DNA from: a virus | Taxonomy: Duplodnaviria; Heunggongvirae; Uroviricota; Caudoviricetes | Virus record (IMG/VR): IMGVR_UViG_2721755725_000007 | DNA: 37,725 bases | Strand: one strand, 5' to 3' | Part shown: one piece after another, positions 9,142 through 9,695 of the stretch | Position numbering within the stretch: the stretch's first letter is position 1 | How the letters are laid out: each line of letters begins with the position of its first letter | Position numbers and translations under genes: made by a program | Notes under the pieces: generated by a model | What the model was told of the DNA's origin: nothing | Seen by the model: only the letters and a program-made list of their open reading frames with translations | Databases searched by the model: none

Positions 9142-9217
9142 GGCCCTTTAGCTCAGTGGTGAGAGCGAGCGACGCATAATCGCCAGGTCGCTGGTTCGAA
9201 TCCAGTACAACGCGCCA
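9142..9217 (+). tRNA. tRNA-like sequence, ileX/ileZ-type (anticodon loop CGCATAA, anticodon CAU), probably degenerate
   Basis: 5' half GGCCCTTTAGCTCAGTGGTGAGAGC and T-arm GCTGGTTCGAATCCAGT closely resemble E. coli tRNA-Ile2 (ileX) as recalled, and it ends in G-CCA; but the 3' acceptor strand ACAACGC cannot pair with the 5' strand GGCCCTT and position 33 is G. Confidence 0.45.
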
Positions 9218-9231
9218 CACTTATTTTCCCT

Positions 9232-9257
9232 GGCTCGCTTTTGCGGGCCTTTTTTTA
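9232..9257 (+). terminator. intrinsic terminator after the tRNA-like sequence
   Basis: GGCTCGC-TTTT-GCGGGCC (one G-U pair) followed by TTTTTTT. Confidence 0.5.
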
Positions 9258-9456
9258 AATGTCTCACAATTCAGGCGGTTGACTGTTGTCTGGTTTGCGG
9301 GGAGTTTGTTAAAAGAAACTGGCATGGTGAATCCCCCTGTGCGGAGGGGCAATCAGCAACCAGGTATATGGGGTAATCGCGGATTCAGGTGCTGGTACTG
9401 AATTCACCGGGAGGCACCCGGCACCATGCAAGAAAAAGAATGTGCATGCAAACATG

Positions 9457-9479
9457 CCCCTCTCCGGAGGGGCTTTTTT
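9457..9479 (+). terminator. intrinsic terminator
   Basis: CCCCTC-TCCG-GAGGGG followed by CTTTTTT. Confidence 0.55.
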
Positions 9480-9485
9480 ATGGGT

Positions 9486-9511
9486 AAAAAAATGCCCGAA
9501 TGGGTTCGGGC
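9486..9511 (-). terminator. intrinsic terminator-like hairpin oriented for - strand transcription
   Basis: A7 run then GCCCGAA-TGGG-TTCGGGC; read on the - strand this is a stem followed by a T-run, back to back with the + strand terminator at 9457-9479. Confidence 0.4.
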
Positions 9512-9607
9512 AATAGCATGAGATACTGATATTGTTGTGTTGTTATCGTGTGGATTTTAACCAGGGTTTATCAGGCTGCGCAACTGCGTGGCCTTTTTTC
9601 ATTTCTT

Positions 9608-9652
9608 GGGCTGTAGTCCCCGTGTGTCATTCAGGCTTCCGGACTACAGCCC
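9608..9652. repeat. perfect 12-bp inverted repeat (GGGCTGTAGTCC / GGACTACAGCCC) with 21-nt spacer, about 45 bp upstream of the esterase gene
   Basis: Arms at 9608-9619 and 9641-9652 are exact reverse complements. Confidence 0.6.
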
Positions 9653-9695
9653 ACTCCATATCTGATTTAATACACTATCCCGGCCGGGAGGAATA

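Follow-up and report, generated by a model that had tools for sequence, protein, structure and literature searches.

In Sp3, 4, 5, 9, 10, 11, 15 and 17, convergent small RNA (sRNA) genes lie at the moron site that follows the late promoter pR' (Tree et al. 2014, PMC4104026). In phage 933W and Sakai prophage Sp5, the order at this site is ileZ-argN-argO, stx2AB, EcOnc27, AsxR and nanS-p, AsxR being an anti-sRNA that targets FnrS. Sakai prophages Sp10 and Sp17 carry a different anti-sRNA, AgvB (EcOnc01a/b), which targets GcvB; in O157 Sakai its start site has been mapped, it gives a 60-nt band on northern blots, depends on Hfq and antagonizes GcvB, and it affects fitness, relieving GcvB repression of dppA and helping the cells to grow in bovine rectal mucus (Tree et al. 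2014, PMC4104026). STnc100 family members are likewise expressed, as EcOnc27 and EcOnc06 in Sakai (PMC4104026) and as 11 transcribed copies in EDL933, one of them confirmed by northern blot (PMC5331693), and a bioRxiv preprint by Zhu et al. covers the relationship between PasD and STnc100 and the position upstream of a sialate esterase gene.

The DNA analyzed here (the window) is the whole 37,725-nucleotide stretch of a Caudoviricetes virus (IMG/VR record IMGVR_UViG_2721755725_000007). Genes identified with Pfam run from Q (6647-7468) through a DNA methylase (8043-9101) and a tRNA-like sequence to a nanS-p-type esterase (9696-11642; DUF1737+SASA+DUF6645), followed by DUF1378, holin and lysozyme, which bears out the Stx-phage-like order from Q to lysis proposed in an earlier note made from the letters of this DNA. 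With a probability of about 90%, this is an EHEC lambdoid prophage whose late-promoter (pR') moron site is unoccupied and harbors a cluster of known RNA genes (Table 1). For the noncoding segment the earlier note had offered a toxin-loss scar, a pre-acquisition state or an sRNA, and the Rfam scan that it had suggested settles on the last: positions 9217-9695 are known RNA genes, neither junk nor scar, and contain two curated, previously described sRNA genes on opposite strands, both scoring above the gathering score of their families. While the note had counted the lack of a transcript against its own reading, near-identical or identical copies have been published as transcribed RNAs (PMC4104026, PMC5331693). 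A convergent sRNA pair at the moron site is common and was already described by Tree et al. 2014, so that the pair itself is no new biology. DNA of the whole locus is identical in O111:H8/H- genomes, and the core (9140-9560) has an identical copy in at least one O157:H7 strain (PV15-279).

Table 1. Features of the moron site, in window coordinates.
Feature	Position	Strand	Details	Basis
pT-like promoter	9104-9132	+	-35 TTGCAG 9104-9109, 17-nt spacer, -10 TATTAT 9127-9132	Hexamers read from sequence
Hybrid pseudo-tRNA	9143-9216	+		Alignment with three-tRNA clusters of Nil3 and PhiR49_2
tRNA-cluster intrinsic terminator	9232-9256	+	Stem 9232-9249, T-run to 9256	
Unoccupied moron insertion site	9256-9303			Local blastn breakpoints, junction alignment, annotations
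STnc100-family sRNA gene	9293-9485	+	Family of EcOnc27, EcOnc06 and PasD	Rfam RF02076
STnc100-type sRNA terminator	9456-9479	+	Stem 9456-9473, T-run 9474-9479	
agvB, anti-GcvB sRNA (sponge)	9487-9548	-		Rfam RF02702
AgvB terminator	9512-9493 (stem)	-	Stem, then T-run	
agvB promoter region	9549-9590	-	-10 TAAAAT, weak -35 TTGCGC, 18-nt spacer	Read from reverse complement
Fourth terminator-like hairpin and T-run	9573-9600	+ (late-gene strand)	9 pairs, 6 GC	
Perfect inverted repeat (hairpin), nanS-p leader	9607-9619 / 9641-9653	+	13 bp	

To locate the junction, the window was aligned with Stx phages (933W, Sp5), as the earlier note had proposed. By blastn breakpoints, the 1,335-bp stx2AB cassette of 933W and Sp5 replaces window positions 9256-9259 exactly, and in Sakai Sp10 and PPyecE_EH1910 a cassette with a TerB-like gene takes the place of approximately 9256-9303. 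Homology is real on both sides: the left flank is 100% identical to Stx2a and Stx2c phages over 9205-9255 and 91% to 933W over 9186-9255, and the right flank matches 933W at 88.5% over 9260-11700 and the Stx1 phage BP-4795 at 93% over 9400-11700. With 933W and Sp5 the locus thus shares its order, homologous flanks on both sides and the convergent sRNA architecture downstream, but stx2AB is absent here, one hybrid pseudo-tRNA replaces three tRNAs, and the anti-sRNA is AgvB in place of AsxR. The same empty junction occurs in the stx-less lambdoid phages Nil3 and PhiR49_2 (ECOR13), in which the tRNA terminator is likewise joined straight to the STnc100-type sRNA (94-99% identity); both keep three intact tRNAs, however, and differ in the leftward anti-sRNA region and the downstream genes, PhiR49_2 being without nanS-p. 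Other phages carry stx or different cargo, such as the TerB-like gene, between the tRNA terminator and the plus-strand sRNA; here the slot has no insert.

The presence of both stx flanks would also be expected if the phage descended from an Stx phage that lost stxAB by deletion, the noncoding segment being the remainder. The deletion in the adjacent tRNA cluster shows that the region is deletion-prone, and Zhu et al. (bioRxiv preprint) considered repeated loss of stx possible for related loci. Nonetheless, searches with Stx1 and Stx2 A and B subunits (tblastn) found no stx remnant anywhere in the window (nothing below E = 0.4) and no match falling in 9100-9700, and blastn with both stx cassettes gave only chance 13-14-mers elsewhere in the window. 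The junction is base for base that of Nil3 and PhiR49_2 with their intact tRNAs, and it is contiguous and empty in 1,015 of 5,426 complete E. coli genomes, including non-STEC lineages; an empty slot is therefore the common condition in E. coli prophages. Among the Stx-phage matches listed from the phage collection, right-flank identity ranged from 85 to 93%, with none near identity, and the unrelated cargo at the same point in Sp10 and PPyecE fits an insertion hotspot. Although a precise excision would be indistinguishable from a site that was never filled, such a descent is highly improbable, and a toxin-loss scar finds no support. Because the empty junction is common and a stx remnant is absent, we regard the locus as an ordinary unoccupied moron site with a convergent sRNA pair. 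Of the earlier note's other suggestions, a pre-acquisition state holds only loosely, in the sense of an unoccupied site at which the stx2 cassette elsewhere forms a clean insertion. The note had also stated that a common non-Stx state without homology to stx-flanking sequence would speak against it: the first is what we found, whereas both flanks are homologous.

Immediately upstream of the empty slot, the single tRNA-like sequence noticed earlier is real but partial. Alignment with the clusters of Nil3 and PhiR49_2 resolves it into an ileZ part (5' acceptor strand, D-arm, anticodon arm with CAU, and variable loop) and an argO part (T-arm, 3' acceptor strand and CCA), with the fusion point inside the T-arm. 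Relative to these two phages, a deletion of ~174 bp has removed argN entirely, together with the end of ileZ (3') and two-thirds of argO (5'); it came about through recombination inside the T-arms, which are nearly identical in ileZ and argO. Consistent with this structure, blastn matched 933W to the tRNA region as two blocks (8991-9205 and 9186-9255). The first block corresponds to 1970-2184 of the compared 933W segment at 94% identity and spans the pT-like promoter, which lies directly 5' of the tRNA remnant and aligns to the 933W feature annotated "pT; putative tRNA promoter" (2083-2111 of the compared segment). Transcription of the hybrid would start from this promoter and stop at the tRNA-cluster terminator.

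A functional tRNA of ileZ/argO type was considered and rejected. ARAGORN reported 0 tRNAs over the whole window, and the Rfam tRNA match (9148-9207, 37.3 bits) covered model positions 7-64 of 71 only, without both acceptor strands. Those strands, GGCCCUU and ACAACGC as read from the sequence, could form only 2 of 7 pairs, and folding predicts a minimum-energy structure other than a cloverleaf (z -1.4). U33, 5' of the anticodon, is universal in functional tRNAs; here it is changed to G (window GACGCAUAAUC versus GACUCAUAAUC in Nil3, PhiR49_2 and 933W). The hybrid is most probably non-functional, and since the acceptor stem cannot form it is very unlikely to be charged. RefSeq nonetheless annotates it as tRNA-Met (9147-9217), its D-, anticodon and T-arms account for the 37.3 bits, its promoter and terminator are intact, and it is contiguous in 144 of 5,426 genomes across O111, O157 and other lineages, all of which would suit a working tRNA-Met/Ile2 or a stable tRNA-derived regulatory RNA. 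Against the broken stem, the changed U33, the ARAGORN rejection and the misfolded minimum, however, this seems very improbable, and the spread of the hybrid is explained by hitch-hiking with the prophage.

Directly 3' of the cargo slot and 5' of the esterase gene, the place that STnc100 family members occupy, the plus-strand sRNA gene matched RF02076 over all 206 model positions (144.5 bits; gathering score 47). Full-length covariance matches are common to it and to EcOnc27 of Sp5, EcOnc06 of Sp17, EcOnc13, and PasD1 and PasD2 of EPEC E2348/69, as are the closing helix (GCAUGGUG/CACCAUGC), the hairpins CCCCU/AGGGG and CCGGG/CCCGG, and a terminator of its own. The RNA most likely extends from 9322 to ~9480 (~160 nt): the 5' end of PasD2, defined by RNA-seq, aligns to G9322, and this start rests on PasD2 together with a weak promoter match. 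Longer or processed forms may also occur, because EcOnc27 in Sp5 runs to ~235/247 nt. Its conserved 5' scaffold occupies 9322-9430, and a variable A-rich segment (9431-9455) separates this scaffold from the terminator. A consensus fold of six variants contained 38 pairs, 6 of them with compensatory changes on both sides, including A-U to G-C switches at scaffold columns 82/104 and 86/100, and the fold of the window RNA has a z of -3.0. The Sp17 copy, 97.3% identical, maps to EcOnc06 of Tree et al. 2014, whose Hfq peak falls at ~9385-9458 under a genome-version coordinate shift measured at Sp5 and Sp10 and assumed to hold at Sp17.

Sequence and structure thus place this RNA in the family, and from them it would be an Hfq-associated sRNA transcribed rightward from ~9322, its structured scaffold followed by an A-rich, single-stranded module specific to the lineage and then by a terminator of its own. 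If PasD is a guide, the seed would lie in the variable module between scaffold and terminator. In PasD that module contains UGUGAG, which is complementary to the CUCACA target motif (a seed predicted from RIL-seq), whereas the window module, AAGAAAAAGAAUGUGCAUGCAAACAUG, is unlike those of PasD and 933W/EcOnc27, and its targets are therefore probably different from theirs. Identity with PasD was rejected: PasD2 of E2348/69 shares the 5' scaffold only, the 3' module differs, and the probe CCTTGTGAGTTCTGGCTGCGCATG is absent.

The minus-strand sRNA is AgvB. It matched RF02702 at 96.5 bits (gathering score 56) over model positions 1-62 of 62, was identical to the consensus at 62/62 positions, and is an exact 62-nt match to agvB1 of Sakai Sp10 and agvB2 of Sp17. 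As in those loci, it lies between the pR' cargo site and nanS-p, on the same strand relative to the late genes, with the same terminator and the same convergent partner; the RNA itself shows no difference, but the host prophage here is O111-type and encodes a 273-aa Q as well as a DNA methylase, and nothing fills the cargo slot on the left of agvB, where Sp10 has the TerB-like gene. AsxR (RF02703) was rejected as the identity, since it scored 43 bits against a gathering score of 63 and only the shared 3' part matched; PasA was likewise rejected for an Esr41-like element 3' of nanS-p, to which it was not alignable. At the 5' side of AgvB is a variable, CA-rich module (CAACACAACAA), which is followed by a conserved 3' part and the terminator. 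Its 5' end, CGAUAACAACACAACAAUAUC, carries CACAACA, a mimic of GcvB R1 targets, and its 5' 23 nt pair with MG1655 GcvB from nt 67 into the GU-rich stretch at -19.5 kcal/mol. Composition-matched shuffles averaged -13.5 +/- 2.9 kcal/mol and 17 of 500 did as well, a control of only moderate power, since CA-rich sequences in general pair with the GU-rich seed.

For the mechanism we follow what has been published for the identical sequence. AgvB would be transcribed leftward as an RNA of 60-62 nt ending 7 nt from the opposing terminator, its CACAACA-containing 5' end imitating the mRNAs that GcvB targets through its GU-rich seed region (R1). By titrating GcvB on Hfq, it would relieve repression of dppA and of other amino-acid and peptide transporter mRNAs. 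Promoters at the locus match the consensus less well and were placed through their homology to sites that have been mapped or annotated. A sigma-70 consensus scan of 7400-9800 returned 0 promoters, the pT-like promoter being unreported and that of agvB missed at 8/12 matches. The agvB -10 sits 5 nt 5' of the mapped 5' end, given by both the Rfam model and the primary start site in PMC4104026, and the promoter region is conserved across AgvB, AsxR and EcOnc03-type variants.

It is also worth weighing whether the segment encodes small proteins. RefSeq carries a pseudo "hypothetical protein" at 9312-9455 (minus strand), depositors have annotated coding sequences on homologous DNA (e.g. ORF42 of BP-4795), ORFs of 31-54 aa occur on both strands, and the ribosome-footprint-to-transcript ratio exceeded 3 for one EDL933 STnc100 copy and 1.7 for two more (PMC5331693). 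However, none of the five ORFs in 9217-9695 had a Pfam match, each overlaps, or runs antisense to, an RNA that scores strongly under its covariance model and shows compensatory changes, indels between variants fall inside them and are not multiples of three, and PGAP itself flags the 9312-9455 coding sequence as incomplete. Small proteins are thus extremely improbable, and 9217-9695 is without a supported coding sequence, in keeping with the noncoding segment described earlier.

Between 7400 and 9800 there are 10 terminator-like sites (2.9 +/- 1.5 in shuffles). The three intrinsic terminators of the earlier note are all present, and it had missed the fourth, a plus-strand site at 9573-9594. 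The first is homologous to the 933W terminator annotated "upstream of the stx genes" (2386-2409 of the compared segment), and the other two belong to the convergent sRNA genes. The fourth overlaps the agvB -35 region on the opposite strand, and its core, TGCGCAA..GCG plus T-run, is kept in 7 of 7 aligned phage variants. The plus-strand terminators at 9232, 9456 and 9573 may stop transcription in the lysogen from reaching nanS-p and the lysis genes, such that only Q-modified polymerase from pR' would read through them; this insulation of the late operon is our interpretation. Beyond them lies the nanS-p leader, with a ribosome-binding site (RBS) GGAGG near 9688, an ATG at 9696 and a fold z of -3.0. 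Its inverted repeat is perfect, as the note had said, but one pair longer than the 12 bp given there; in 933W the hairpin has one T.T mismatch and 0 compensatory changes. A leader arm at 9625-9642 is 72% complementary to the nanS-p RBS/ATG. A riboswitch or RBS-sequestering role finds neither this pairing in the minimum-energy fold nor compensatory change in the 933W hairpin.

An unlikely but conceivable further role is that the convergent layout forms a switch tying prophage induction to amino-acid and peptide uptake, or, likewise improbable, that the pseudo-tRNA, whose promoter and terminator are intact, builds up as a regulatory or decoy RNA resembling a tRNA. In a lysogen, AgvB would be made and would sponge GcvB; on induction, Q-modified polymerase from pR' would pass the three plus-strand terminators. 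As the resulting late transcript would be a perfect complement of AgvB over its full 62 nt and would run through the agvB promoter, it would titrate AgvB and occlude agvB transcription. If so, GcvB activity would be restored in cells committed to lysis.

Returning to the unoccupied moron site, the alignments give base-level boundaries for the cargo slot 3' of pR' (9256-9303), the entry point of stx2AB, stx1AB and other cargo. The value lies mainly in annotation: on identical DNA, RefSeq labels the stretch as tRNA-Met plus a pseudo "hypothetical protein", whereas its actual content is a hybrid tRNA, most probably dead, and a pair of sRNA genes; AgvB, from that pair, has been shown to affect the fitness of EHEC in the bovine gut.

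Many EHEC O111:H8, O111:H- and O111:NM chromosomes carry a prophage with 100% identity to window 7400-11700 (of 5,426 complete E. coli genomes searched, 3,478 gave some match), and O157:H7 strain PV15-279 likewise matches the core (9140-9560) at 100%. Pfam supported the gene order proposed in the earlier note, matched no small ORF within 9217-9695, and the note's overall description of the segment (terminators, inverted repeat, a single tRNA-like sequence and noncoding DNA) was confirmed. An ALIL pseudoknot marks programmed frameshifting in an IS3-family (IS1203/IS629-like) transposase and places an insertion sequence at the window's left end.

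Features of the window with Rfam or Pfam matches
Feature	Coordinates	Strand	Evidence
ALIL pseudoknot	282-398	+	Rfam RF01497, 121.5 bits
RusA			Pfam; first in order, before Q
Antiterminator Q	6647-7468		Pfam
N6/N4 DNA methylase	8043-9101		Pfam; tRNA-like sequence next
STnc100	9293-9485	+	Rfam RF02076, 144.5 bits (gathering 47), full model
AgvB	9487-9548	-	Rfam RF02702, 96.5 bits (gathering 56), 62/62 identical to consensus
nanS-p-type esterase	9696-11642		Pfam DUF1737 + SASA + DUF6645
Esr41-like element	11644-11720	-	30.9 bits (gathering 102)
DUF1378, holin, lysozyme			Pfam; in this order after the esterase

Alignment to the Stx phages 933W and Sp5 (a prophage of O157:H7 Sakai), as had been proposed, located the toxin breakpoints. 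Local blastn against 933W returned three blocks, the third of which (9260-11700) started 42 nt past the stx2B stop, so that a 1,335-bp stx2AB cassette replaces window 9256-9259; the same replacement was found in Sp5. A TerB-like gene occupies the slot in Sakai Sp10 and PPyecE_EH1910, whose homology to the window picks up again at 9304; that of the Stx1 phage BP-4795 does so 3' of stx1B. No stx fragment was detectable in the window at the protein or DNA level, and Nil3 (99%) and PhiR49_2 (94.5%), phages without stx and with three intact tRNAs, share the junction base for base. The contiguous junction (9205-9330) occurred in 1,015 of 5,426 complete genomes, non-STEC lineages included, while ~1,250 further genomes had part of it only, beside another left neighbor (mostly the sRNA-side end, judging from sampled rows). 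Clean breakpoints, other cargo, the lack of an stx fragment and a common stx-less junction together identify the locus, from sequence comparison, as a cargo hotspot in its ordinary, unoccupied state. Precise toxin loss could in principle have occurred at the slot, but nothing supports it, and the same observations speak against the toxin-loss scar suggested earlier; the suggested pre-acquisition state stands insofar as the slot is unoccupied, but this is the hotspot's ordinary form. At the edges of the 933W cassette lie the two copies of an imperfect 7-nt direct repeat (left ATCTGCG, near 2410 of the 933W locus sequence L004; right ATCTGTG, near 3740), which could be a footprint of cassette entry or chance.

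ARAGORN found zero tRNAs across the whole window, and the single tRNA-like remnant described earlier was recovered as a partial match to the Rfam tRNA model (9148-9207, 37.3 bits, positions 7-64 of 71 only), both acceptor strands therefore lying outside the match. When aligned to the intact ileZ-argN-argO clusters of Nil3 and PhiR49_2, the remnant retained ileZ from the 5' end to the variable loop, switched to argO within the common T-arm motif CTGGTTC, and took its T-arm and 3' end from argO; ~174 bp were absent at the fusion, and 933W and Sp5 both matched here in two blocks (8991-9205 and 9186-9255). The acceptor strands (ileZ 5' GGCCCUU and argO 3' ACAACGC) form 2/7 pairs, U33 is changed to G, and the hybrid folded alone gave no cloverleaf (z = -1.4). 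It was contiguous in 144 of 5,426 genomes. Since the promoter annotated pT in 933W is conserved at window 9104-9132, the remnant is probably still transcribed as far as the terminator at 9232-9256. This tRNA-tRNA deletion is the sole local degenerative event. Sakai Sp10 carries a different one (ileZ4-argO4 without argN; 3206-3458 of its locus sequence, L008), and the phage tRNA array has thus been eroded independently in different prophages.

An Rfam scan, run permissively and then at gathering thresholds, gave two strong hits, STnc100 and AgvB, bearing out the earlier suggestion of a small RNA. Six variants of the + strand RNA (window, PasD2 of EPEC E2348/69, 933W, BP-4795, Nil3 and PhiR49_2) were aligned and had a common scaffold. 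It consists of a helix that closes it (GCAUGGUG/CACCAUGC), two hairpins (CCCCU/AGGGG; CCGGG/CCCGG) and a further helix of 8 bp; at two positions of this last helix A-U gives way to G-C in three of the six, with compensatory changes at six pairs in total. The interval between scaffold and terminator, which in PasD holds the predicted seed UGUGAG, is hypervariable (AAGAAAAAGAAUGUGCAUGCAAACAUG in the window). Because the scaffold is common and this interval differs, the RNA is classed by sequence as a member of the STnc100/EcOnc27/PasD superfamily, and its identification as PasD was rejected. The RNA-seq-defined 5' end of PasD2 aligns to window G9322, and a promoter-like pattern upstream (TTGnnn, 18 nt, TAAAAR) is retained in the otherwise unrelated left flanks of Sp10 and PPyecE, from which we infer a ~159-nt RNA (9322-9480; fold z = -3.0). 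Sakai Sp17 is 97.3% identical to window 9304-9751 and encodes EcOnc06, an sRNA on the late-gene strand of ~177 nt on northern blots, noted as "5' ECs1961" (PMC4104026). The shift between the paper's genome version and the current one measured +135 to +139 at Sp5 and +137 to +146 at Sp10; with a shift of +128 to +139 applied at Sp17, the EcOnc06 Hfq peak would fall at window ~9385-9458, in the 3' half of the + strand sRNA. EDL933 has 11 transcribed STnc100 copies, one northern-verified (PMC5331693).

The 62-nt AgvB sequence has exact copies in Sp10 and Sp17 (agvB1 and agvB2). AgvB has a mapped primary start site and a 60-nt northern band, is less stable without Hfq, mimics a target of the GU-rich GcvB seed region R1 through CACAACA in its 5' variable region and relieves GcvB repression of dppA; deletion of both copies lowered competitiveness in bovine terminal rectal mucus (PMC4104026). 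Pairing between the first 23 nt of window AgvB and MG1655 GcvB, which starts at GcvB nt 67 and extends into the GU-rich stretch, came to -19.5 kcal/mol; shuffles of the same composition averaged -13.5 ± 2.9, and 17/500 did as well. The agvB promoter region (-10 TAAAAT, its distance to the mapped 5' end being 5 nt; weak -35) is conserved in AgvB, AsxR and EcOnc03-type variants. On identical DNA, RefSeq/PGAP annotates neither sRNA; it places a tRNA-Met on the hybrid (9147-9217, +) and, on the strand opposite the STnc100-type sRNA, a pseudogene for an incomplete "hypothetical protein" (9312-9455, -), both probably annotation artefacts.

Region 7400-9800 held 10 terminator-like sites (2.9 ± 1.5 in shuffles). 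The three named previously were all present where stated, and a fourth + strand hairpin and T-run (9573-9594, within 9573-9600) overlaps the -35 region of the opposite-strand agvB promoter, its core (TGCGCAA..GCG + T-run) recurring in 7/7 aligned phage variants. By the established behavior of lambdoid Q antitermination, the + terminators at 9232, 9456 and 9573 in series would shield nanS-p and the lysis genes against transcription in the lysogen, with Q-modified polymerase alone passing them. Three further + hairpins lie 3' of Q (7502-7518, 7551-7566 and 7879-7896), the second (CCCGCCGCCTGGCGGG + T-run) being likely the tR' terminator; a short pR'-tR' transcript made here would be analogous to StxS. 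The inverted repeat reported as 12 bp is real and perfect but measures 13 bp (9607-9619/9641-9653). It gives the nanS-p leader (9607-9701) a stable hairpin (leader z = -3.0), with one mismatch and zero compensatory changes in 933W; 9625-9642 is 72% complementary to the RBS/ATG (9684-9701), a pairing unused in the leader's minimum-energy fold.

The DNA 3' of pR' tolerates morons and holds convergent sRNA genes, such as EcOnc27 and AsxR 3' of stx2B in Sp5, with the same organization in Sp3, 4, 9, 10, 11, 15 and 17 (PMC4104026); the window has exactly this architecture at its moron site. The Esr41-like element (UUUUCUCCAU motif, strong GC hairpin and U8) converges on the nanS-p stop codon (11642), in the slot of PasA of EPEC E2348/69, to which it is not alignable; it is possibly a further convergent sRNA, or else a terminator acting in both directions. 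Each RNA element here falls in a published, curated family, and the architecture has been on record since 2014, so both are already known; what is added is small: the hybrid pseudo-tRNA described base by base, where the slot begins and ends, and the RefSeq mislabelling. Q-dependent read-through, fully antisense to AgvB, is unlikely to couple induction to GcvB activity, a link that would be of moderate interest if true.
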